Origin: Candidatus Hermodarchaeota archaeon
GTDB taxonomy: Archaea; Asgardarchaeota; Heimdallarchaeia; Hodarchaeales; Hodarchaeaceae
Assembly: GCA_048886185.1 (NCBI GenBank)
Contig: JBHLKY010000013.1
Location: forward strand, 82,687-114,686
Reading direction: 5' to 3'
DNA: 32,000 bases
The notes beneath the pieces were generated by a model, which saw nothing but the letters and a program-made list of their open reading frames with translations, was not told the origin of the DNA and ran no database searches. The translations under genes and the position numbers were made by a program. Below are positions 3,644 to 30,479 of the stretch, one piece after another. Position 1 is the stretch's first letter. Each line of letters begins with the position of its first letter.

Positions 3644-6463
3644 TCAATCCCAGTATTCGCGGGTACGTGCAAAATCTGCTTCGTGTTTGTATATTAATGC
3701 CAAAAGATCTTCCGAATCTTTCTGAGGTGCTCTGAGAATTCTGACCGCAGTAGTTGGACCAATACCTCGTCCCGCTAAAACGAAAGCAGCTTTCTTTCCA
3801 AAAGATAATATTAAATCGGCCGACTTCTTTGCAGTATTCAGTGTTTTTTTCTCCTCTCGGGATAATTTTTTATTGTTTGTGATAGATTTCTTTAATAATC
3901 CTTTAATTCCTGTTTTATTTTGATGAGTGACCGCTATAAAGCGAGAGCTACATTTAGGACACTGAATGTCTTCCTTTAAACTTTCTACGCGCTGCACTTT
4001 CTCGAATTTGCAATCAGGTCGCATACATACTAATCTAATCCAAGTATTTCTGATTCTTTTCTCCACCTTCTCAAGAATAATGTGTGAAGGTCTAATTTTT
4101 AGAACATTCAAAGAGATTGGCTGGGTTGCTGCAAATGAAAGCGGTGTTTCAAATCGCTTGACAGGGATTTCTTCAATGGTTATTATTCCCTTGTGGAGTT
4201 GATTGAAGAATTCAACTACGGCGTCAACGTCCATTTTTTCAAAAAGGATTTCATTAATAGTCTCTTCCCCAATGATCGTATCCTGATAACGTGAGACTAT
4301 TAACCTTGTCATCATTGGCGAACTTTCTGCATCTTCAGAAATAGCTCCAAATCGCTTAGCTACCTGACGAATACGCCATGCGAATAAGTCGCTGTTACCA
4401 ATTCTATGTTTCAATAGGGGGGGAATGTGTTCCGCTTCAATTGAATCGAGAATTTGTTTCAAATCTGCGGGCCGTGGTAAAGAAAGAAAAATCGAATAAG
4501 GATCAGATCGAAATTCTACAGAATGTCCTTGTTTTGCGCCAATAATAGAAGAAACTAGTAATGCTAGAGTTTCATTACCTTTTGACCCTAGGAAACTATG
4601 AATCACTAATTGCCTTCCTGCTGTTTCAACCAAAATCTTATTCTTTGTAGGGACAATTCCTAATTTTTTATGGTCTTCGATAATCTTGAGTAATTCCCTT
4701 TTTATCGGAGATGGTTTCATCTCATTAAGGGAATTATATTCAAAAAATCTTTTTGCTGATTCCGTAACCATCTGAGAAACTGGAATTAACTCTCCTTCCC
4801 ATGTAGGTATTGCTGCTTCTGTTAATCCTTTTACCTGTCGAACCTCAATTCGATCTTCTTTTTGAGCTAAAAATTCCCACGGAAGGCCATTTAGAATAAA
4901 AATTGCCCCTTTCTCCCCTCTAGTTGATACAAAAGCTTCGTCTAAGTGTCCGACCCTACTTTGTCTTCCTATATCAATAACCACATAATTTTTTTTAGTT
5001 GGAATGCTACTCAGGTTTGTATAATAATATTGATAGGCTTTTCGTTTAGCTTTTAAAGAGATAATTCCTGTGTCTGGATCCTTATTTATATAAAAGAAGT
5101 TATTCTCTCGACCAAAATTTAATAGCGGTAATAGATCTTGAGAAGAGAACTCATTAAATGCAAATGTATTTCTAATTATTTTCATTATAGTATTTATTTT
5201 TGTTTCGCCAAAGTCTAATAAAATTCCTATAATACTATGAAAGAGAATATCTAACGCATAAGGATGTAAATTAGTTGGTTCAACTATCTCCTTCCAAACA
5301 CATTGTTGGATTGTATATGATTCTAAAAGGTCTCGTGGAGTCTCCGTAATAATTATTCCTCGACTTGTACGATCTAAACCATGTCCTGCTCTTCCTACTC
5401 TTTGAATTAGAGTCTCTATTCTTCTAGGACTCATATATTGAATTACTAAATTAACTGCTCCGATATCAATTCCCAGTTCAAGGGAAGAGGTAGCAATAAT
5501 TAGTTCTAAGTTTCCTTCTCTTACTTCTGTCTCCGCTTTTAATCGATATTGAGCTGAGAGGCTTGAATGATGGACCTCGAAGTTGATTCGATCCTCCTTT
5601 TCAACATTTTCATTATAACGATTGAATCGATATCCAAGAATCTCTGCTTGCTGGCGTGTATTAGTAAAAAGTAACACTGTTCCTGATTCTCTTTTTATAA
5701 TTTCAACAATTCTAAAAAATCGTGCTGCTGCTTCTTCAGTGGTTTGTAGTGTTTTTGTGAATTCATGAAGAGTTGGAGATAACTTTGTTGGGAATTCAAC
5801 TGTAAGTTGTAACTGTTTTAAAGATGGAATTTCAACAATCTTACGATTAGTACTATTTTGTGCAAGAAAATCCAGTACCCTTTCAGGATTCCCCAGAGTT
5901 GCTGAAAGGCCTATTCTCTGGATTCTTCTTTCTGTTCGAATTGAAAGACGTTCCAGGGCAAGGGAAAGTTGAACTCCTCTTTTAGTTTCAACTAATTCAT
6001 GGATTTCATCAATAACTACTGTTTGAACATTTTTAAGATGTTTTCGTCCAAGAATTTTCGCAGGTAATAATGCTTGAAACAATTCAGGAGTCATGATTAA
6101 AATTTGTGGAGGATTTTTGGTTTGTCTTCTTCTTTCTGCGCTTGTAGTGTCTCCATGACGTACAGCTATAGATACTCCCAGTTTTTCTCCCAATGATGGC
6201 AATACTCGACGAAAAATATCTCGATTTAGGGCTTTTAAAGGAGTGATTACGATGGTACCAAGTGGTAATGATTTTTCAGTAAGAATTCGATGGAAACAAG
6301 CGATCATAGTACCGAAGGTTTTTCCCGATCCAGTACTCGCAACAACTAAAACGTCATCCTGAGCGATGATAGCTTCAAGATATTCCATTTGGCCAGGAGT
6401 TGGTGAGAGACCGAGTTCATCTAAAACCTTTTGAAGCCGAGGATTTAAAATATCGAAGGACAC
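3644..6463 (-). CDS. lhr: Lhr-family SF2 ATP-dependent helicase with C-terminal Zn-finger
   Basis: Motifs STGSGKT, TPLKALNRD, RHGDT, TPE, DEIHE, GLSAT, HHSSLS, ATSSLELGIDIG and QRVGRAGH are present, plus the domain-4 IPTWEGE signature Trp and C-terminal CMRPDC...CPKC. GTG start. Confidence 0.95.
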   Translation of the reverse strand: MSFDILNPRLQKVLDELGLSPTPGQMEYLEAIIAQDDVLVVASTGSGKTFGTMIACFHRILTEKSLPLGTIVITPLKALNRDIFRRVLPSLGEKLGVSIAVRHGDTTSAERRRQTKNPPQILIMTPELFQALLPAKILGRKHLKNVQTVVIDEIHELVETKRGVQLSLALERLSIRTERRIQRIGLSATLGNPERVLDFLAQNSTNRKIVEIPSLKQLQLTVEFPTKLSPTLHEFTKTLQTTEEAAARFFRIVEIIKRESGTVLLFTNTRQQAEILGYRFNRYNENVEKEDRINFEVHHSSLSAQYRLKAETEVREGNLELIIATSSLELGIDIGAVNLVIQYMSPRRIETLIQRVGRAGHGLDRTSRGIIITETPRDLLESYTIQQCVWKEIVEPTNLHPYALDILFHSIIGILLDFGETKINTIMKIIRNTFAFNEFSSQDLLPLLNFGRENNFFYINKDPDTGIISLKAKRKAYQYYYTNLSSIPTKKNYVVIDIGRQSRVGHLDEAFVSTRGEKGAIFILNGLPWEFLAQKEDRIEVRQVKGLTEAAIPTWEGELIPVSQMVTESAKRFFEYNSLNEMKPSPIKRELLKIIEDHKKLGIVPTKNKILVETAGRQLVIHSFLGSKGNETLALLVSSIIGAKQGHSVEFRSDPYSIFLSLPRPADLKQILDSIEAEHIPPLLKHRIGNSDLFAWRIRQVAKRFGAISEDAESSPMMTRLIVSRYQDTIIGEETINEILFEKMDVDAVVEFFNQLHKGIITIEEIPVKRFETPLSFAATQPISLNVLKIRPSHIILEKVEKRIRNTWIRLVCMRPDCKFEKVQRVESLKEDIQCPKCSSRFIAVTHQNKTGIKGLLKKSITNNKKLSREEKKTLNTAKKSADLILSFGKKAAFVLAGRGIGPTTAVRILRAPQKDSEDLLALIYKHEADFARTREYWD

Positions 6464-6506
6464 GAAACATAATCATCCTTTTATCTGAAAAACAAAAAAA
6501 AAGACG

Positions 6507-6514
6507 CTTATAAA
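6507..6514 (-). promoter_or_regulatory. Candidate TATA box for lhr
   Basis: Reads TTTATAAG on the - strand, about 45 nt upstream of the GTG start. Confidence 0.35.
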
Positions 6515-6949
6515 TGGTCAAACACTATCAATTATACGATATCGAATTATATATTCAATTCTTTCTGATGAGTAATTTATGTATGAAAACAGTCTAAATC
6601 TAAGAAAAAGCAAAATTTTCTTTCGTACAACTTTTGATATATCATTTACTCATTAATCACACTATTTAAGGGGTGATAGCTAACAATTTCTACTTATCTG
6701 GAATTTAAAACACAGAAATAATGAGTATTCAAGTATATTGAAATTCGAATACTTAATAAAATATCTTTAACCATTAACCATATTCTTAAAAAAAAATGAA
6801 ACTTTTATTTAAATAGTAGTTTTTTTTAAAAAATGTCACTTTTCTTAACTCACATTACGACAAAACTAAGTAGAAATGAACTGTTTTAATTCTAGGAATC
6901 ATTTACAATTATTATTAATATATGAAATCTTATTTTATGGTGTTGCATC

Positions 6950-21633: not shown

Positions 21634-22662
21634 ATGTTTAATCCTGGAAATATTGGAGCCTTAAAACTCCCAAATCGCTTTGTACGTTCCGCAACAGCTG
21701 AATTTGCAGCAAATGATAACGATGGTACCATAACTAAAGAATATTATACATTGTATTCTAATTTAGCCAAGGGAGGAATAGGGCTTATAATCCAGGGGCA
21801 CCTTTATATTATGGATGAGGGGAAAGCTCATGATAAAATGGCTGGAATTGCCTATGATAGTCATATAGCTGGTCTAAAGCAAATTACTGAAATTGTCCAT
21901 AAAACAAGACCAGGAAGTGTCATTGCTGCCCAGTTAAACCATGGAGGAGCTCATTCGGTGAGTACCAAAACCGCTTCACCCCGAAAAGGTAAAGAAATTA
22001 AAGTGATGAATGAAGAAGACATTGAAAATGTAATCAAGGGATTTCAAAAGGCTGCACTCCGTGCAAAAAAAGCTGGTTATGATGCGGTTCAGATTCACTC
22101 TGCCCATGGATATTTACTTAGCCAATTTCTCTCTAGTAAAACAAATAGGCGAACGGATTCATGGGGTGGCAGTTTAGAGAATAGAGCACAATTTTTGTTA
22201 TCAGTCTATCGTGATATAAGATCAGCTGTTGGAGCTAATTATCCAATACTGGTAAAAATGAACGGATCCGATGACCCTTCAGAAGGCTTTCCTATCGAAG
22301 AAGGTTCCAAAGTAGCTGGTTGGTTAGCTGATGAAGAGCTTGACGCACTTGAAATAAGTGGAATGAAGTCTACACGCCCAGTCAAAAAACAAGATGAGGG
22401 GTACTTTGTAACAACTGGGAGAAGAATCAAGCAGCACATTGCTGACCTACCACTGATTTTAGTAGGTGGACATCGTTCATTAGCTCACATGCAAAAGCTA
22501 AGAGAAGAATTTGTTGATTTTATTTCCCTATGTAGACCCTTTATCAGAGAACCTGATCTTGTACAAAAGTTTCAAGCAGGAAAGGATAGATCTGATTGTA
22601 CATCCTGCAATCGCTGTCTTAAAGAACGGATTGTGACTAAATGTCTAGAGAAAGAAGATTAG
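21634..22662 (+). CDS. NADH:flavin oxidoreductase (Old Yellow Enzyme family)
   Basis: Motifs NRFVRSAT, QLNHGG, AGYDAVQIHSAHGYLLSQFLS..TNRRTD.WGGSLENR and RPFIREPDL, plus C-terminal CTSCNRC. Confidence 0.94.
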   Translation: MFNPGNIGALKLPNRFVRSATAEFAANDNDGTITKEYYTLYSNLAKGGIGLIIQGHLYIMDEGKAHDKMAGIAYDSHIAGLKQITEIVHKTRPGSVIAAQLNHGGAHSVSTKTASPRKGKEIKVMNEEDIENVIKGFQKAALRAKKAGYDAVQIHSAHGYLLSQFLSSKTNRRTDSWGGSLENRAQFLLSVYRDIRSAVGANYPILVKMNGSDDPSEGFPIEEGSKVAGWLADEELDALEISGMKSTRPVKKQDEGYFVTTGRRIKQHIADLPLILVGGHRSLAHMQKLREEFVDFISLCRPFIREPDLVQKFQAGKDRSDCTSCNRCLKERIVTKCLEKED

Positions 22663-23304
22663 GATCCCAATGAACATAAATAATAAACCGCTAACTATGT
22701 TTATTTTGTTCCTTGGTATTTTAGCGGCAACTTTTTCCCCTGCATACACACCAATCCCATTTACCACAGCTAAAGCACTTAGAGCTCCTAATAATACTCC
22801 CCAAGGATCTACTTGAGTAGCTAACCCAACTCCCATTAGCATTGTTTTGTCACCCAATTCTGCTAAAAACATGAACGAAAGTGAGGCAATAAATCCTCCC
22901 TTCTGTACAACCTCGGTGAGGTAAATTTCACAATTTTCCATATCTGGACAATTTTCATGAGGTTTGTCACAAAAGTCTAAATCTATCGGACAAAATTGAA
23001 CAGATTCATTACTATTTTTTCGGAATTGAATCAGTAGGAAAATTATTCCCCCTATAATAAAAAGAATACCAATTAAAGGTTTTAAAAAGGAGAATTCAAT
23101 CACACTTTTCATTAGGGTCCCAATTATTACTGCAATTAATGTGACTCCCGTCAATCCGCAAATCGCTCCTAAAAACACTTTTTTTGGGCTTCGATATTTC
23201 ATACTTAATGCAAATGCAGCCAATTGGGTTTTATCTCCCATTTCCATGATAAATACAGCCATGAAGGAAAAAAAAAGTGCCTGAGAGAGTTCAATTAACG
23301 ACAT
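22645..23304 (-). CDS. GDT1/TMEM165 (UPF0016) family Ca2+/Mn2+ transporter with Cys-rich central loop
   Basis: Two E-x-G-D-K-T repeats (MEMGDKTQ, AELGDKTM), each followed by TM helices. Confidence 0.93.
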   Translation of the reverse strand: MSLIELSQALFFSFMAVFIMEMGDKTQLAAFALSMKYRSPKKVFLGAICGLTGVTLIAVIIGTLMKSVIEFSFLKPLIGILFIIGGIIFLLIQFRKNSNESVQFCPIDLDFCDKPHENCPDMENCEIYLTEVVQKGGFIASLSFMFLAELGDKTMLMGVGLATQVDPWGVLLGALSALAVVNGIGVYAGEKVAAKIPRNKINIVSGLLFMFIGILIFFL

Positions 23305-23396
23305 TTAGACTATTTTCCTGATTACTATACAATAGAAGCCTATAAATATCGATTAAAAAAATGATTATGACAAAATTTATGTATTTGGTGAGATGA

Positions 23397-24236
23397 ATGT
23401 GTCGTTGGTGTGTTGAACATACTGCCCGAAAAATTTGGTATTTAGAACCAGTGAACCATAAATTAGGCACGATTAATCGATTACAGCGATTTTGGGACTG
23501 GTATATTGATATGGGGATTCTTTATGGGACCATTGATGACATTAGTCAAAAGGAAAAACCTTGGGGATTTCCGAAAAAAAATTTCTATAGCTTTTATGCT
23601 AAAAGAATACATGGAGGACAAGTGGTTGCTTCTCTCAAAGAGTCCCTGAAAATCCTCGAAATGAGTCAAGACTTATATCTCACTTATTGTAGTTGTAGAT
23701 ATTCGACGCATTCAGAACACCCAAAACTAAACAAATGTATCTTACTCAACAATGACGCTGAGCAGGCTCGTCGATGGGATGGTAAGGCCAAACTAAAAGG
23801 AAAACCAACAATTGGTACGTTCATTGATATTAACGATGCTAGGGATATTATTGTCAACTCTAGAAAGGAGGAGAAATGTTTTCAAACTGTTCTTTGGAAG
23901 TGGCCTCCTCGGGTCGCGTGTTTATGTAATTGTGATCAGTATTGCGCTTCATGGTGGGCCCCAGAGATTGAATGGGGGCGACTCCCTTCATTCCATCGGT
24001 CTAGAGTAGCTAATCCAGATCGATGCGATAAATGTGGCATGTGTGTAAATTATTGCCATAAAAAGGCATTAATTCTTAATGACGAGAGTGGGCCTCAAAT
24101 TGATCAAGAAAAGTGTTTAGGTTGTGGACTTTGTGTCGAGAATTGTCCTCAAAATGTGTTTACATTGGTACCTCGTAAAGCCATATATGACCGTCAAATA
24201 GGTAAAACTGTTGAATTAATCTCTGAAAGCTCCTAA
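23397..24236 (+). CDS. Multi-cluster iron-sulfur protein (4Fe-4S dicluster at C-terminus)
   Basis: Two ferredoxin motifs CDKCGMCVNYC and CLGCGLCVENCP, plus extra Cys groups MCRWC..H, CSCR and CLCNCDQYC. GGTGA SD upstream. Confidence 0.88.
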   Translation: MCRWCVEHTARKIWYLEPVNHKLGTINRLQRFWDWYIDMGILYGTIDDISQKEKPWGFPKKNFYSFYAKRIHGGQVVASLKESLKILEMSQDLYLTYCSCRYSTHSEHPKLNKCILLNNDAEQARRWDGKAKLKGKPTIGTFIDINDARDIIVNSRKEEKCFQTVLWKWPPRVACLCNCDQYCASWWAPEIEWGRLPSFHRSRVANPDRCDKCGMCVNYCHKKALILNDESGPQIDQEKCLGCGLCVENCPQNVFTLVPRKAIYDRQIGKTVELISESS

Positions 24237-24252
24237 AATTGATGCATAGACG

Positions 24253-26193
24253 ATGGTAAAAGAGATAACAACTGTACAAAAGGTAGAATTTCTTCTCTTA
24301 ATAGCTATTTTTCTCGGTTCTTTTATTCTACTCTTTTTTCAAATAGTACTGTCACCAAAATATGATAAATCCCTTCCAGCAGCTGATTTAGTGGGTCACT
24401 TACCGTTAAGTGCTGCTATTCAGCAACCAACTATCACAAATGATCTTGGAGATCACCCTCTTGAAATTAGGGAAATTTCACAGATTCTTTGGGCTCTCCA
24501 AGGGATAACACACGGTGTCAACAAAAGAACAGTCCCTTCAGCAGGCGCAACATACCCCTTGGAGATTTTTTTAGTACACAAAGGGTCAAGCACATTGAAG
24601 AAAGGGCAATACAAATACTCTCCCCAATATCATAAGTTGAAACTCATTTCTTCCTCATCTAATTGGTCAGAATTACTGCTATCATTCCTTGATGATGATT
24701 ACAAAGCCATATCTAACGTTAGTACCGTCTTTTTAATACTTACTGATTATTCTCGTACAACCAATATATATAGTTCCAATCATTCATTATATGCTTATCG
24801 TGGAATCCAATATGTCCATTTAGAAGTAGGACATGCCATTCAGAATTTTCAACTGCAGCTAGCGTCTCTGAATTTAAAATCACGGATAATTTTCAACTTT
24901 ACCTCCCAAATAATTAAAGATTTTCTCGATTCAACCTTGGATCCCATGGTAGTGTTACCTGTTGGAATTGATAGAGTTTCTTCCCCATCTCCTTTAAGAT
25001 TAAAGCAGAATCTCTCTTGTAACAAAGAAGAAATGACAGTTGAGCAAGCCATTGCGAAACGAAAGTCCGTAAGGGACTACTTAGATGGAAAAATTCCACT
25101 GCTGGTCATCTTGAATATCTTGAATGACAGCATAAATATTCCATATTTAACCAAAGATAATTTGCATCTTGATTTTCGTTTTGTTGCTGGTGAAATTGGA
25201 GGATTGTCAAATGGATCTTATCGATTTCAACTTGAAAATCACACTCTTACTCTAATAGAACTAGGGGATTTCCGAACTGAACTGAGAGAAGCGGGTTTAA
25301 ATCAAATAATGATTGAAAAAGCTCAATGTGACATTGTTATCTCTGTGAATACAACTTGGATTAAAGAACAACTTGATCCACTACTTTATCATCGGATAAT
25401 GATGTACAATATTGGTATGTTGGCTCAAAATATCTATTTAAAATGTGCAGCATATGGTTTAGGAACTGTTGTAGTTGGGGCTTTATATGAAGGCAAGACT
25501 TCTCGAGTGATAGATATTCCTAACACTCATACTCCGATCTATATCATACCAATCGGGTTAACGCCAGAATTTTTTGAAAATAAAAGCATAATTTATATTC
25601 CATTAACTAATTTGGCTAGGAATATCGGACTACTGTCCTATATCCCCTTCTATTTTTGCCTGTATCTTTCTCTTCCAATATTAAGACAAAGAATTAGTAA
25701 AAAAATGCGTTGGATACATTGTCTTAGTGGTATTATCCCTTTATTGGGTGTTTTTTTTCACTTTATGGTTATTCATGGCCATGTTCGGGATCTCTGGGAT
25801 TTTATAAACCTAAATTCCTATTTTAGTGCTTTGATTCGCTTTGTAACTAAAATTCTTTTGTTTCCAATAACTAGATATGATATAGGGATTTACTTGGCAA
25901 ATCTGAATATCCTATTAGGATTTTCAGCTGGTGTAACTGGAATTATTGTTGGATTCAAGATAATCAAGAACAAAAAGCTGGTTAAAAAGATTCATAAATA
26001 CTCCATCTTTGGTATAATCTTCTTTATGATTATTCATGTTTTACTGAATAGAACAATGGTCGTCATCGACCCTATTGTTTTCCTTTTACTGAATGTATTG
26101 ACAATTGATCTTTTTTTCATAATATATTTATATCCTAAATTAGCTACAGACATTTTTAAAAGAAAGAAGACAACATCTTCATTGTTTCCTTAA
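24253..26193 (+). CDS. Membrane-anchored tandem SagB/ThcOx-type nitroreductase fused to a C-terminal cytochrome-b/ferric-reductase-like membrane domain
   Basis: N-terminal TM helix. Domain 1 has RTVPSAGATYPLE and EVGHAIQN. Domain 2 has AIAKRKSVR and GLGTVVVGA. The last ~200 aa form about five TM helices with His pairs H489/H503 and H581/H595. Confidence 0.85.
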   Translation: MVKEITTVQKVEFLLLIAIFLGSFILLFFQIVLSPKYDKSLPAADLVGHLPLSAAIQQPTITNDLGDHPLEIREISQILWALQGITHGVNKRTVPSAGATYPLEIFLVHKGSSTLKKGQYKYSPQYHKLKLISSSSNWSELLLSFLDDDYKAISNVSTVFLILTDYSRTTNIYSSNHSLYAYRGIQYVHLEVGHAIQNFQLQLASLNLKSRIIFNFTSQIIKDFLDSTLDPMVVLPVGIDRVSSPSPLRLKQNLSCNKEEMTVEQAIAKRKSVRDYLDGKIPLLVILNILNDSINIPYLTKDNLHLDFRFVAGEIGGLSNGSYRFQLENHTLTLIELGDFRTELREAGLNQIMIEKAQCDIVISVNTTWIKEQLDPLLYHRIMMYNIGMLAQNIYLKCAAYGLGTVVVGALYEGKTSRVIDIPNTHTPIYIIPIGLTPEFFENKSIIYIPLTNLARNIGLLSYIPFYFCLYLSLPILRQRISKKMRWIHCLSGIIPLLGVFFHFMVIHGHVRDLWDFINLNSYFSALIRFVTKILLFPITRYDIGIYLANLNILLGFSAGVTGIIVGFKIIKNKKLVKKIHKYSIFGIIFFMIIHVLLNRTMVVIDPIVFLLLNVLTIDLFFIIYLYPKLATDIFKRKKTTSSLFP

Positions 26194-26196
26194 ATT

Positions 26197-27129
26197 ATGG
26201 AGTTAGTTATTTTGCCTCATATATCGCGAAAAAGAATTGCGATCTGTTGTCATGGATTCTTGGGAGTTCCTGAAATGATGCATGAGGTCGAAACTACTCT
26301 CAGTAAGGATCCTTTTGATCAGGTTTATGATAGAGTATTCAACATCTCATATTATAGTTCCAAATATGGTATAAACTTTAGTCAACCTTTTGATTTAAAA
26401 ACCCCAATATATGAGAAAACCACAAACCAAACACTTGCACATAATTTCTTGAATCAAATATATTTCTGTCTAAAGGATTATAGGGAGGAAATTAACATTG
26501 ACATCTATGCTCACTCAATGGGTGGATTAGTAACACGCAGTATGGTAAAATATCTATCAGAGGAAAGAGATGATGGTATTTGGATTAAAAATGGAATAAT
26601 CAGGAAAATTTTTCTATTGGGAACTCCAAATCATGGAACCAGATTATCCCAACGCTCTATAGATATCCCCATAGATATCTTGATGACAGGGTTAAATCTC
26701 ATGTTTGAGCTTCCAGATGGTCTCACATCTGATGATCTACAACTCTTCAAATCCCAATTCATGCAAATGGTACCAAACTCCACTTTTTTAAGACAACTAA
26801 ATCAATCCTCAAAAAGTATCGAAGAACTCATTACATGGGTCACAGTAAGAGGATTATCGTGGATAAATCAGCTTGGATGGTTACCTGTAGTGTGGCAGCC
26901 ATTCTTGTTCAGGAAATTCTGGGTTGATGGTCATTTCCCATTTTTCCACGTTGGGATTATTCCTAATGATGGATTGGTTGATGCTAAACGAGTACCTTTA
27001 AAATTTGCCAAAAATCTCACTGTTCCATCGGCAACTCACATGGATCTCTTGTGTTGGAAATCTAAAAAGTCTGGAAGACAAGTCTTGGATATACTTAAAC
27101 CAATTATTATGGTTAATGGGAAAAACTAA
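26197..27129 (+). CDS. Alpha/beta hydrolase, lipase/PGAP1/DUF676-like
   Basis: Motifs CHGFLG, AHSMGG (Ser), LGTPNHGT, NDGLV (Asp) and ATHM (His). Confidence 0.88.
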   Translation: MELVILPHISRKRIAICCHGFLGVPEMMHEVETTLSKDPFDQVYDRVFNISYYSSKYGINFSQPFDLKTPIYEKTTNQTLAHNFLNQIYFCLKDYREEINIDIYAHSMGGLVTRSMVKYLSEERDDGIWIKNGIIRKIFLLGTPNHGTRLSQRSIDIPIDILMTGLNLMFELPDGLTSDDLQLFKSQFMQMVPNSTFLRQLNQSSKSIEELITWVTVRGLSWINQLGWLPVVWQPFLFRKFWVDGHFPFFHVGIIPNDGLVDAKRVPLKFAKNLTVPSATHMDLLCWKSKKSGRQVLDILKPIIMVNGKN

Positions 27130-27133
27130 TCGA

Positions 27134-27140
27134 TTTTTTT
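27134..27140 (+). terminator. Candidate oligo-T archaeal terminator after the Fe-S/nitroreductase/lipase operon
   Basis: A T7 tract starts 5 nt after the TAA at 27127-27129. Confidence 0.3.
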
Positions 27141-27173: not shown

Positions 27174-28262
27174 ATGGAAGAATTAAATGTGAAAATTAAG
27201 TTTGAATCAATACCTGAGGTCGAATTAAAACCCAAATTTAAGTCAGAAGCCAATTTAGGATTTGGAAAGCTTTTTACTGATAGAATGTTGGTCATAGAAT
27301 ATAAAAATGGGAACTGGGGAACTCCCACGATAAAGAAATACGCCCCGATAGTAATTGATCCCTCTGCAATCGTTTTACACTATGCTCAAGAAATTTTTGA
27401 AGGACAGAAAGCATTTAGTACTCCAGATGGACACATTAACTTGTTTCGTCCAGAACGTAATGCTATTCGCTTTAATTCTTCTGCTAGAAGAATGATGATG
27501 CCAGAACTAGATCCAGAAGTTTACTTAGCCGGATTGAAAGAATTAATAAAAGTCGAGAAAGATTGGGCTCCAAAATCTCCTGGTACCTCATTATACATAA
27601 GGCCAACAATGATTGGAACAGAACCAGGCTTAGGTGTAAGACCCTCGAAAGATTATCTCTTCTATATCATTCTCTCACCCTCCGGACCATATTTTCCCGA
27701 GGGATTTCAGTGTGTCAGAATTTTCGTCAGCGAATTCTACATACGAGCTGCTCCTGGTGGTACAGGTAGTGCAAAAACAGGAGGAAATTATGCAGCTAGC
27801 TTACTAGTGGGCAGGGAAGCTGAAAAATATGGGTGTAGTCAAGTATTATGGCTCGATGCAAATTATAAGAAGTATGTAGAAGAAGTTGGTGCTAGCAATA
27901 TCTTCTTTGTTTATGAGGATATCATTTACACAGCACCATTGACCTCTGGTACAATATTACCAGGAGTGACAAGGGATAGTACAATTCGATTAGCGAAAGA
28001 TGGGGGGATGACTGTAAAAGAAGAAGCACTTTCAATAGATGACATTATTGAAGGTATTCATACTGGAAAAATATCTGAAGTATTTATGAGTGGAACTGCT
28101 GCCTCAATTGCACCAGTTGGTAGTCTTTATTATCAAAATGAAGAACATATTATAAACAACTTTGAGATTGGCGATATTTCCAGAAAGCTGTATCGGCAAC
28201 TGATAGATATCCAATACGGACGGGTGGAGGATCCATACAACTGGATCGTAAGAGTAATATGA
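27174..28262 (+). CDS. ilvE: Branched-chain amino acid aminotransferase (longer, group II type)
   Basis: Motifs LHYAQEIFEG.KA, LFRPE.N, LYIRP, AKTGGNYAASL (PLP Lys), EEVGASNIF and ILPGVTRDS. Confidence 0.95.
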   Translation: MEELNVKIKFESIPEVELKPKFKSEANLGFGKLFTDRMLVIEYKNGNWGTPTIKKYAPIVIDPSAIVLHYAQEIFEGQKAFSTPDGHINLFRPERNAIRFNSSARRMMMPELDPEVYLAGLKELIKVEKDWAPKSPGTSLYIRPTMIGTEPGLGVRPSKDYLFYIILSPSGPYFPEGFQCVRIFVSEFYIRAAPGGTGSAKTGGNYAASLLVGREAEKYGCSQVLWLDANYKKYVEEVGASNIFFVYEDIIYTAPLTSGTILPGVTRDSTIRLAKDGGMTVKEEALSIDDIIEGIHTGKISEVFMSGTAASIAPVGSLYYQNEEHIINNFEIGDISRKLYRQLIDIQYGRVEDPYNWIVRVI

Positions 28263-28368: not shown

Positions 28369-29016
28369 ATGACGAATACATTAATAGAATCTCATCCTGA
28401 AAAAATACAGATAATTCAACGAGGAAATAAGCTACAGAGTGTTTTTTTTATTGTAATGGGTTGTTTCTTTCAGTTATTATTTGTATGGGCTTATTGGAGT
28501 TTTCTGGACGCAACTGGGCCTTGGGCTTTTTTTTGGCTTGGTCTGATAAATAGTGATTATTTTCCTTTCATTTCATTGCTATTCTTATTTGGTGGAGGCT
28601 GTTTTTTAATTGCAATAAAGGAAGGGGCTTGGATTGAGAGTTGGATTATTAAGAAGGAATTATCACCAAAGATACCAGAGGTTCAAAAAAAATGGCAACT
28701 TTTTAAGTGGTCTGGGGTGAAGACTATTCCGAAGGATCAAATTCGGTCTATTAGGGTTCATACAATTCCATTAGATACGTTGAAAATCCTTAATCGTTAT
28801 CAGCTTGAAATAGATTGCCAAGGTACTAGTAATTCATCCGCAGAAACTCATGTTCTTTATTCAGATGATAGTAAATTAGCAGGTGCCACAATTATACAAT
28901 TAGCTCATCAAATTCAGGAGATTCTAAATCTAACCAAAGGGATCGAACAAATAGAGGCCCCATATCCAGCTTTAGTAAGATCTAAGAATTTCAAAGAAAA
29001 AAAGGGGGAAGGATAA
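28369..29016 (+). CDS. Hypothetical membrane protein (two N-terminal TM helices, soluble beta-rich C-terminal domain)
   Basis: 215-aa ORF with two clear hydrophobic segments. No family recognised. Confidence 0.7.
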   Translation: MTNTLIESHPEKIQIIQRGNKLQSVFFIVMGCFFQLLFVWAYWSFLDATGPWAFFWLGLINSDYFPFISLLFLFGGGCFLIAIKEGAWIESWIIKKELSPKIPEVQKKWQLFKWSGVKTIPKDQIRSIRVHTIPLDTLKILNRYQLEIDCQGTSNSSAETHVLYSDDSKLAGATIIQLAHQIQEILNLTKGIEQIEAPYPALVRSKNFKEKKGEG

Positions 29017-29036: not shown

Positions 29037-30479
29037 TTAGAAATATTGAGTAGGGTCTCTCATACCTCGTTTTCTTCTATCCATACTAGCTAAAGCCTTG
29101 AATTCAGTACGAAGCTCTGCGGGTAGACGACTTGGTTTTTTGTAACCTTCAATAGTATCTTTTGCATAGGAATAAAGGAAAGAACGGAAAGCTACTTTCA
29201 TAGGCATAGTAACAACATTGTATGGTAAACTTCCTAGAAAGAGGAATATGAAAGCAAAAAGAATACCAAAGCCGATATCTTGGCTAACCGCGAATCCCAA
29301 ACCAAATCCAGCCAAGATCCATATTAGAGAATTAATTATGGCAAATATGAATGTTGTAAGTCCGAATCCTGACTCTCCTACTAATACATCTAATAATGAA
29401 TTCCAGGTTGTTTTTGCTGAATCTTTAATAGAATCTTTTAATCCTCGCTTATTTTGAACAATTGATATTAGAGTAAAATAATTCATAAACATCCAGATTG
29501 CGCCAAGTATTGAAATAAATAAACCCGCAATAGCACCACCAATAATTCCAGCGATAATTGCCCCACCACCATATTGTCTATCAGTGGCTCTTGCTTGACT
29601 TCTTCCAGCTGACGTAACTATTTGCATAATTATCTTAACAGTCGCCATTGCAAAAGCAAATTTGATGATTATAGGAAATACCTTACGTACATCTTTCATT
29701 GCAGAGTTTAAGTCTGGATCTAAGCCTCGATACCAATCACTGGCATAAGAAATCACTCCAGCAGAGAGACTGTAATATACCCCCAAATATACAATTAAGT
29801 AGATGTATTCGAATAAAATGGCAGAAATATAACCAGGAGGAGTAAGTTCAGTTTCACCCATAGCATTCTCTATAGTAAAAAGACTAAGGATTTCGAGGAA
29901 ACCAAATAGCATGAAAAAGCCTGTAATGATAGTGTATATACCTAGAAGGATAGGCATCGCAATTACAGCTTTTTCATCTAGCACAAGTTGAGCAGAAAAT
30001 TCAACAAATTGTCCAGATCTTTTGATTAAAGTAAATTTCCAAATAACAAAAATGAAGAACAAAACTCCAAGGCCTGCGATAATTATTCCTAATAAACCCA
30101 TGTCTGGATCAGAAATAAATATCAAAGCGCCAATTGTTATCATGAGTAAAGGAAATAGAATGCTAACCGCGATTGTGACTTCTTGAGCAAGTTTGCTCAT
30201 AATCCAGACAATAACATATGCCAATATGATTGTAATAAACAAAAAGATTGCAGCAAAAGCGATTAAAAGAGGCAAGAAGGGCATAGTAACTGGGATTACA
30301 GTATAAAAGACCTCTGAAATAGACTCTAGTGTTTCAGTATTTTCAGGGGCAAATATAAAGTGCACAAAAGAGTATGCTCCAAAAGTGTAAAGAATTACTA
30401 CTATAACCAAATATAACCATGCTGGTATACTGGAAAAATCTGTTTTTATGTCAGGTTTTGTATATTTAGATACACTCAC
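29037..30479 (-). CDS. Multi-pass membrane protein, probable CTL/SLC44 (choline transporter-like, Pns1)/DUF6159-related
   Basis: About 10 TM helices with CTL-like landmarks SAGVISYASDWY, MNYFTLISIVQNKRGLKDSIKDS and AFRSFLYSYAKD. GTG start 6 nt after GGTGA. Confidence 0.6.
   Translation of the reverse strand: MSVSKYTKPDIKTDFSSIPAWLYLVIVVILYTFGAYSFVHFIFAPENTETLESISEVFYTVIPVTMPFLPLLIAFAAIFLFITIILAYVIVWIMSKLAQEVTIAVSILFPLLMITIGALIFISDPDMGLLGIIIAGLGVLFFIFVIWKFTLIKRSGQFVEFSAQLVLDEKAVIAMPILLGIYTIITGFFMLFGFLEILSLFTIENAMGETELTPPGYISAILFEYIYLIVYLGVYYSLSAGVISYASDWYRGLDPDLNSAMKDVRKVFPIIIKFAFAMATVKIIMQIVTSAGRSQARATDRQYGGGAIIAGIIGGAIAGLFISILGAIWMFMNYFTLISIVQNKRGLKDSIKDSAKTTWNSLLDVLVGESGFGLTTFIFAIINSLIWILAGFGLGFAVSQDIGFGILFAFIFLFLGSLPYNVVTMPMKVAFRSFLYSYAKDTIEGYKKPSRLPAELRTEFKALASMDRRKRGMRDPTQYF

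Follow-up and report, generated by a model that had tools for sequence, protein, structure and literature searches.

Ferric-reductase-domain enzymes such as NOX, STEAP, and MsrQ/YedZ have a core of six transmembrane (TM) helices, with bis-histidine pairs on TM3 and TM5, and they connect a flavin with a stack of two haems. One bis-histidine pair near each face of the membrane is the classic layout for two stacked b haems. A protein of the DUF4405 family has been purified and binds haem b, and it was modelled as a carrier with six TM helices and four histidines that feeds extracytosolic flavoproteins (PMC11334425). The MsrQ-like and PepSY-like systems are related to the DUF4405 carrier and analogous to it (PMC8238504). 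Here we describe a protein that appears to join a haem-carrying membrane domain and a flavin domain in one chain. It is encoded by the second of three adjacent genes (genes 1, 2, and 3) in a stretch of 32,000 nucleotides, which we call the window, from contig JBHLKY010000013.1 of Candidatus Hermodarchaeota archaeon (order Hodarchaeales).

An initial annotation of the window had proposed that the products of the three genes (an Fe-S protein, a membrane-bound flavocytochrome, and a lipase-like hydrolase) form a single electron-transfer system. We lean, with modest confidence, toward another view: gene 2 alone is the functional unit, a two-haem transmembrane carrier to an outward-facing FMN, and its neighbours are not fixed partners.

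A flavin domain joined to a predicted two-haem membrane domain

In the AlphaFold2 (AF2) model of the gene 2 protein (pLDDT 84, pTM 0.82), helices span residues 4–32, 451–478, 483–507, 541–568, 574–599, and 607–644, and the hydropathy profile agrees. The first of these is a signal anchor and the other five make up a cytochrome b-like domain. To examine conservation, we aligned 63 full-length relatives. Exactly four histidines in the TM region are invariant in all 63 sequences, down to 26% identity. Two of them (H489 and H503) are on TM3 and two (H581 and H595) are on TM5, and within each helix they are 14 residues apart. We infer that the haem ligands pair across the helices, with H489/H581 near the inner face and H503/H595 near the outer face. 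This layout would be the two-haem pattern of the DUF4405, MsrQ, and ferric-reductase-type cytochromes b, and we predict that the protein binds haem.

Profile matches to the TM region are of the same kind. The match to DUF4405 scored 18.8 bits, or 23.3 bits in the scan of the whole genome (the cut-off is 26.7). Among 41 relatives, the TM region had no recurrent matches other than to DUF4405 (in 19), Ni_hydr_CYTB (in 5), Ferric_reduct (in 5), and DUF4079 (in 2), and all of these matches were also below threshold. We take these four to be related cytochrome families. When we used residues 450–646 as the query and looked for shorter proteins that might be stand-alone relatives of the TM domain, the search yielded nothing beyond an incomplete copy of the gene 2 fusion itself. 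Also, when the whole model was used as the query in Foldseek, the matches were mostly to nitroreductases, which masks the fold neighbours of the TM domain.

The distribution of charge suggests which side of the membrane the flavin domain is on. When averaged across the family, the N-terminus has a net charge of +1.5, the segments after TM1 and before TM2 have -1.3 and -0.3, loops 2-3, 3-4, and 4-5 have +2.9, -0.7, and +6.0, respectively, and the C-terminus has +1.0. Because this is a positive-inside pattern, the N- and C-termini are predicted to be inside the cell and the flavin domain of ~420 amino acids, which connects TM1 to TM2, is predicted to face the outside. The soluble domain is also rich in N-x-S/T sequons: there are 6.9, as compared to 3.5 expected after shuffling the composition, and the number is above expectation in 61 of the 63 sequences. 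Four sequon positions are kept in at least 60% of the family. Finally, a structurally similar cluster of archaeal tandem nitroreductases bears PKD domains, which are usually extracellular. An outward-facing flavin domain is our best reading of these patterns.

The flavin domain contains two nitroreductase halves that are homologous to each other. The first half is of the SagB type and matches TIGR03605 with 138 bits (the cut-off is 78.4). It has an invariant motif, R92-x-x-P95-S96-A97-G98...Y101-P102, and has lost the RxSxR motif. The second half matches the Nitroreductase family (PF00881) with 86.5 bits, which is over the cut-off; its invariant motif is R270-x-S272-x-R274-x-Y276, and it lacks PSxG. 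In nitroreductase homodimers, the RxSxR element of one subunit and the PSxG-type element of the other converge on a single FMN. Because each half of the gene 2 protein keeps the motif that the other has lost, the simplest reading of the tandem is a pseudo-dimer in which the two halves together complete a single FMN site. The closest solved structure, both by sequence (E = 3.6e-15) and by fold (E = 9e-19), is a tandem nitroreductase, 3eo7; McbC and ThcOx match less closely. We also considered S-A-G-A-T100 in the first half as a site of flavinylation by ApbE. We dropped this candidate, as PSAG is a generic SagB motif and the genome has no ApbE (see below).

At NCBI, relatives of the protein are named "SagB family peptide dehydrogenase," which would make gene 2 a dehydrogenase for thiazole- or oxazole-containing ribosomally synthesized and post-translationally modified peptides (RiPPs). 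The above-threshold match to TIGR03605 fits with this name, and so does the distant likeness to McbC and ThcOx in sequence and fold. However, YcaO (PF02624) has no match anywhere in the host genome (this genome is 96% complete, and all of the genome-wide absences that we report refer to it). The initial annotation had already remarked that the window lacks YcaO, and that absence extends to the whole genome. Neither a cyclodehydratase nor a precursor was found beside ~30 orthologue loci, although no search for small ORFs was made. Furthermore, the closest structure (3eo7) is not a RiPP enzyme, and the nitroreductase domain is fused to a cytochrome-like domain and is predicted to face outward. 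Because YcaO is missing from the genome and from the neighbourhood of every orthologue, the name does not fit: it is a label for the domain, not for the function. The RiPP explanation can hardly be right, and we suggest that this widespread public annotation be corrected for a family that lacks RiPP context.

If gene 2 is a self-sufficient carrier, then it would work as follows. Electrons would enter from the inside, from quinol or from a cytoplasmic donor, and would reach the inner haem of a six-TM, two-haem b-type domain. From there they would pass to the outer haem and on to the outward-facing FMN of the tandem nitroreductase, which is inserted in the first outer loop. The FMN would then reduce some extracytoplasmic or membrane-surface substrate. 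Electrons might also flow in reverse along the same path. The domain content, the invariant residues, the charge bias, and the synteny pattern were observed directly, and the binding of haem and FMN, the direction of electron flow, and the substrate are inferred.

In these respects, the initial annotation of gene 2 has held up well. It described a fusion of a nitroreductase with a cytochrome b, which agrees with the above-threshold matches to TIGR03605 and PF00881 and with the weak match to DUF4405. Its proposal of membrane haems and an outward FMN site is supported by the invariant histidines, the charge pattern, the sequons, and the sub-threshold matches to DUF4405, cytochrome b561, and Ferric_reduct.

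Linkage of gene 2 to its neighbours

To see if genes 1 and 3 accompany gene 2 in relatives, we used gene 2 to query 83 genomes of its class and inspected the surroundings of 23 orthologues in GTDB genomes, as well as metagenome contigs. All three genes are adjacent in just 2 of the 23 GTDB loci (G058 and G067, which have the same flanking genes), and no locus below ~60% identity keeps the trio. One contig of an NCBI metagenome-assembled genome (MAG) also keeps the trio, and G066 has it with a luciferase-like gene inserted. In G056, the Fe-S gene is kept and a GH130 gene is found where the hydrolase would be. In two other syntenic loci the Fe-S gene is absent (G065; L020) or is reduced to a remnant of its first 29 codons (G059; L021). 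Neither neighbour is present in 15 of the 23 loci, including all eight of the distant orthologues (26–32% identity).

The metagenome contigs show a conserved backbone around gene 2: epimerase, old yellow enzyme (OYE), GDT1, a variable slot, gene 2, another variable slot, class IV aminotransferase (BCAT), a protein of 214 amino acids, and a protein of 481 amino acids. Upstream of gene 2, the slot is filled by the Fe-S gene, by a luciferase-like oxidoreductase, or by a second OYE; downstream, it is filled by the hydrolase or by GH130 with LysE. In more distant contigs, the neighbours of gene 2 are unrelated to these.

A different set of neighbours is seen in L070, which has a distant orthologue of gene 2 (26% identity). 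There we found other genes for redox functions of the envelope (442–1925 and 6023–6742): an AhpC/redoxin protein, a thiol-electron transporter (DsbD_TM), a gamma-glutamyltranspeptidase, and an FNR-type protein (NAD_binding_1).

The neighbours also have their own distributions across the genus. The hydrolase is present in a single copy in 20 of 22 genomes of the genus, including four without an orthologue of gene 2. It adjoins gene 2 in only about six genomes, and in the complete genome G056 the two genes are 2 Mb apart. Close orthologues of the Fe-S gene (73% identity or above) are present in only 6–7 genomes of the genus, versus 16 with gene 2, and in G063 the close orthologue is not linked to gene 2. 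The genomes that lack a close orthologue of the Fe-S gene have only a paralogue with 41–47% identity.

The trio, which is confined to a single subclade of the genus, is one state that a conserved synteny block has taken in that lineage, rather than a machine of three conserved parts. The initial annotation had proposed examining the conservation of the gene neighbourhood and stated that its model would fail if the genes were never linked. The three genes are linked in three to five close relatives, and this linkage does not extend across divergent lineages.

The product of gene 1 belongs to a widespread family of proteins of ~270 amino acids that begin with MCxxCxxH...W-Y-L and end with a ferredoxin domain. 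This domain was matched by Pfam's Fer4 model with 43.7 bits, which is above the cut-off. In an alignment of 32 members of the family, C210, C213, C216, C220, C240, C243, C246, and C250 are invariant and form two CxxCxxCxxxC motifs. The N-terminal domain contains C2, C5, H8, C98, C100, C114, C177, C179, and C183, of which the last six (C98 through C183) are invariant in the same alignment. The first ~200 residues did not match any Pfam family. The AF2 model is confident (pLDDT 90), and its matches to solved structures are confined to the ferredoxin part. Similarly, when we searched with the fold of the N-terminal domain (Foldseek against PDB, VIA-align wide, and the ESM Atlas), we obtained only the ferredoxin part or unannotated clusters of "4Fe-4S binding protein." The nearby Atlas clusters come from bacteria that are anaerobic and from Asgard archaea, namely Chloroflexota, Nitrospirota, Thermodesulfobacteriota, and Promethearchaeota.

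The host genome encodes 6–7 paralogues of gene 1, and their neighbours vary: they include GNAT, NUDIX, DUF72, an iron-dependent repressor, and FMN_red. Relatives of gene 1 in other genomes also have varied neighbours. One of the paralogues in the host genome (220 amino acids; L011:1324-1986) is followed after 8 nt by an NADPH-dependent FMN reductase, FMN_red (1994-2587). This second pair of an Fe-S protein with a flavoprotein is on the same contig (G000:C13:116580-117843), ~2 kb past the end of the window.

The product of gene 3 is an alpha/beta hydrolase with three Pfam matches, all above their cut-offs: DUF7379 (39.5 bits; cut-off 33), DUF676 (32.4 bits; cut-off 20.3), and Lipase_2 (21.1 bits; cut-off 20.3). 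All of 20 aligned orthologues share an oxyanion motif (HG at positions 19-20) and a catalytic triad of S107 (within AHSMG), D258, and H281. We did not find a TM helix or a signal peptide in this protein (the highest hydropathy over 19 residues is 1.17). Because it lacks both, it is probably cytoplasmic, and so separated from the flavin domain by the membrane. Its sequons are about twice as frequent as expected (4.75 versus 2.14 across the 20 orthologues), despite the lack of an export signal, and two of them are conserved: N49-I-S in 20 of 20 and N273-L-T in 19 of 20. The hydrolase is probably an independent, cytoplasmic enzyme of the housekeeping type.

How do these results bear on the idea of one machine, in which the Fe-S protein would reduce the cytochrome b from its inner face, the electrons would reach the outward FMN, and the hydrolase would act in the same lipid or ester pathway? 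In the host genome, the three genes are co-oriented, with gaps of just 16 nt (between genes 1 and 2) and 3 nt (between genes 2 and 3), and there is a single tract of seven Ts, after gene 3 only. Because of this arrangement, the three genes are probably co-transcribed. The trio is also found in the relatives listed above (with one insertion in G066), and another member of the Fe-S family has FMN_red just downstream. Ferredoxin-domain genes beside other orthologues of gene 2, which are described below, are another argument for this idea. On the other hand, the linkage is lost beyond one subclade. The Fe-S gene has been deleted or has decayed in two syntenic loci, is unlinked in G063, and has no close orthologue in most of the genomes of the genus that have gene 2; and members of its family elsewhere adjoin unrelated genes. 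The hydrolase occurs without gene 2, is far from it in most genomes, and has no export signal, which places it across the membrane from the FMN domain. Overall, we consider it improbable that the three genes form one machine. We also predicted the structure of a complex between the full-length gene 2 protein and the Fe-S protein (alignments A2 and A1). It scored 0.00, as compared to a mark of 0.32, but there were no controls, so this result weighs neither way.

Much of the initial annotation of these genes was correct as a description: we recovered the coordinates, the gaps, and the T tract; the two 4Fe-4S motifs of gene 1, along with three more cysteine groups (C2/C5, C98/C100/C114, and C177/C179/C183); and the full Ser-Asp-His triad of gene 3, which is conserved as well. 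The wire of three genes is another matter, as the linkage is confined to one subclade and, in relatives, the two slots that flank gene 2 are occupied by other genes. A shared pathway for the hydrolase finds little favour given its independence from gene 2 and its lack of an export signal. The proposed operon looks like ordinary local synteny. Still, the Fe-S protein could be an occasional electron donor to gene 2.

Cofactor supply and evidence against a stand-alone carrier

Several observations count against gene 2 being a stand-alone carrier with two haems. First, the DUF4405 score was under Pfam's cut-off in every member that we tested. Second, the tandem nitroreductase is also found in shorter proteins of 420–440 amino acids (L063:5001-6326 and L064:5001-6269; P0060, P0073, and P0075), which consist of a signal anchor and the tandem nitroreductase only. 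These come from MAGs labelled as Thorarchaeota and from other Asgard MAGs. They have no cytochrome domain, and there is no cytochrome gene next door. Because these anchor-flavin forms exist, it seems that the flavin domain can work without a fused haem domain.

Third, the supply of cofactors is puzzling. ALAD (HemB), which is required if haem is not scavenged, was not found in the host genome. Among the other members of the genus, just 1 of 21 has ALAD; in the sister families, which mostly lack gene 2, it is present in 3 of 3 and 9 of 12 genomes. This pattern suggests that the genus is auxotrophic for haem and scavenges it. For the haem b synthase AhbD (TIGR04545), the host genome has only sub-threshold matches to radical-SAM proteins. 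Similarly, MqnA (PF02621) was not found in the genome, so a quinone pool is unsupported. As for the flavin, ApbE (PF02424) has no match in the host genome, while the controls did match in 8 genomes, and none of the N-terminal sequences of gene 2 contains a twin-arginine motif. Because both ApbE and a twin-arginine motif are missing, the loading of a non-covalent FMN into an outward-facing domain, and its retention there, would be hard to explain.

Nevertheless, haem proteins are credible in the Hodarchaeales lineage. The host genome encodes subunit I of cytochrome bd (E = 1e-144) and a cytochrome b561-type protein (outside the window, at G000:C1:50928-52241 and C1:25968-26585), and measurements have detected haem B in a strain of Hodarchaeales in culture (10.1101/2025.02.26.640444). 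Because ALAD is absent, the haem is probably scavenged. Both puzzles are of interest in themselves: the lineage lacks ALAD yet encodes haem proteins, and a flavoprotein with non-covalent FMN would be exported although neither ApbE nor a twin-arginine (Tat) signal is present.

These same facts could be taken to mean that the TM region is a mere anchor or a module without haem, or that the flavin domain is cytoplasmic, so that gene 2 would encode a membrane-tethered NAD(P)H nitroreductase. ALAD is all but absent from the genus, neither ApbE nor a Tat signal is present, the score for DUF4405 does not reach the cut-off, and anchor-only forms do exist. However, a mere anchor would not conserve four histidines, at haem-type spacing on two helices, in all 63 sequences. 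Also, the bias toward lysine and arginine in loops 2-3 and 4-5 puts the soluble domain on the opposite side, the sequons are enriched, and the same genome encodes other haem proteins. We consider the anchor explanation quite improbable.

The last of the observations that count against the stand-alone carrier involves Fe-S genes of another kind. In L016, L018, and L022, an orthologue of gene 2 adjoins a QueG-like gene with a Fer4_16-type domain (L016:3480-4385, L018:3543-4334, and L022:1-603). These proteins have motifs such as AGIGWRGKN, and the orthologue of gene 1 is absent from these loci. To our knowledge, archaea have no queuosine. With ~50 Fer4 proteins among ~4,800 genes, we would expect ~0.5 such neighbours by chance in 46 slots, as compared to three apparently independent arrangements of an Fe-S gene with gene 2 (one with the gene 1 family and two with QueG-like proteins), although this count was made post hoc and the genomes are related. 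The excess is a hint, and no more, that an Fe-S donor in the cytoplasm may be important.

A bolder proposal is an Asgard-specific "inside-out NOX," in which one polypeptide would connect cytoplasm or membrane, via two scavenged b haems, to an FMN at the cell surface, with interchangeable soluble Fe-S donors (from the gene 1 family or QueG-like) on the cytoplasmic side that were recruited repeatedly. We speculate that such a protein would allow electrons to be disposed of or taken up outside the cell, for instance via external quinones, humics, or nitroaromatics, or by exchange with syntrophic partners. We think that this proposal is rather unlikely to be correct, and we continue to prefer gene 2 as a carrier without fixed partners.

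Layout of the locus and comparison with known systems

The features of the locus are listed in Table 1. The T tract is a plausible oligo-T terminator of the archaeal type. Just upstream, the genes for OYE and GDT1 are convergent and overlap by 18 nt (22645-22662), and this pair is kept in synteny in relatives. Downstream of BCAT are genes for two membrane proteins, of 215 amino acids (28369-29016) and 480 amino acids (polytopic; 29037-30479), which belong to the same synteny block in relatives; neither matched any family in Pfam or NCBIfam. Close homologues bear names that assign the contig to Heimdallarchaeia/Hodarchaeales. DNA of the locus was found in four DNA runs from sediment metagenomes, which may be its source, with a small share in estuary runs, and no RNA run was listed.

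Table 1. Positions of genes, domains, and candidate signals (numbered from the first nucleotide of the window).
Feature	Position	Strand	Basis
OYE FMN oxidoreductase (flank)	21634-22662	+	domain search
GDT1 cation antiporter (flank)	22645-23304	-	domain search
Candidate archaeal TATA box TATAAATA, ~49 nt before the start of gene 1	23341-23348	+	read from letters only
Shine-Dalgarno-like GGTGA before gene 1	23387-23391	+	read from letters only
Gene 1, soluble Fe-S protein, 279 aa	23397-24236	+	ORF and Pfam
Gene 1, 2x[4Fe-4S] ferredoxin domain, aa 204-260	24006-24176	+	Pfam Fer4
Gene 2, membrane fusion protein, 646 aa	24253-26193	+	ORF, Pfam/NCBIfam, hydropathy, AF2
Gene 2, TM1 signal-anchor helix (N-terminus predicted inside), aa 4-32	24262-24348	+	hydropathy peak 2.81, AF2
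Gene 2, nitroreductase half 1 (SagB-type), aa 72-232	24466-24948	+	TIGR03605
Gene 2, nitroreductase half 2, aa 267-435	25051-25557	+	PF00881
Gene 2, TM2-TM6, cytochrome b-like domain, aa 451-644	25603-26184	+	hydropathy, AF2, His conservation
Gene 3, alpha/beta hydrolase (DUF7379/DUF676/lipase class 2 type), 310 aa	26197-27129	+	Pfam
T7 tract, starts 5 nt after the TAA stop of gene 3	27134-27140	+	sequence
Class IV aminotransferase (BCAT; flank)	27174-28262	+	domain search

Hodarchaeales-type Asgard archaea are among the closest known relatives of eukaryotes, and they are syntrophic and largely anaerobic. If the architecture of gene 2 works as we read it, then these archaea have a one-protein conduit for electrons across the membrane, with the flavin on the outside, which is the reverse of NOX and STEAP. 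This would bear on how syntrophic, largely anaerobic cells dispose of electrons, or take them up, at their surface.

The neighbouring hydrolase and the flavin domain each have well-described relatives. Gene 3 shares the A-H-S-M-G elbow, the GTPNxG motif, and the Ser-Asp-His triad with the DUF676, lipase class 2, and PGAP1-like hydrolases, and its link to gene 2 is not conserved. Ava_2154 (PDB 3eo7), like gene 2, has two nitroreductase halves in a single chain that forms a pseudo-dimer; unlike gene 2, it is soluble and has neither membrane helices nor a cytochrome domain. The azoline dehydrogenases SagB, McbC, and ThcOx share the SagB-type signature (R-x-x-PSAG...YP) with gene 2. However, those enzymes act in the cytoplasm on precursor peptides, together with YcaO cyclodehydratases, whereas the genome with gene 2 lacks YcaO.

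As for the membrane domain, gene 2 resembles NOX, STEAP, and MsrQ/YedZ in its pairs of histidines on TM3 and TM5 and in the weak matches of 5 of 41 relatives to Ferric_reduct. NOX and STEAP have their flavin domain in the cytoplasm and send electrons outward to O2 or a metal; in gene 2, the flavin is predicted to be outside, so the arrangement would be inverted, and there is no NAD(P)H-binding domain. The DUF4405, MsrQ-like, and PepSY-like cytochromes (PMC11334425, PMC8238504) share more with gene 2: six TM helices, four central histidines, and a flavoprotein outside the cytosol as the proposed acceptor. They differ in that gene 2 carries its flavoprotein within an outer loop of the same chain, as a tandem SagB-type nitroreductase instead of an FMN_bind or flavodoxin-type domain. 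Also, the host of gene 2 is an archaeon without ApbE, and so without covalent flavinylation, and the score for DUF4405 is sub-threshold. A two-haem membrane cytochrome that feeds a flavoprotein on the outside is thus already known; what is new here is the fusion, the tandem nitroreductase of the SagB type, the archaeal host, and the lack of ApbE.

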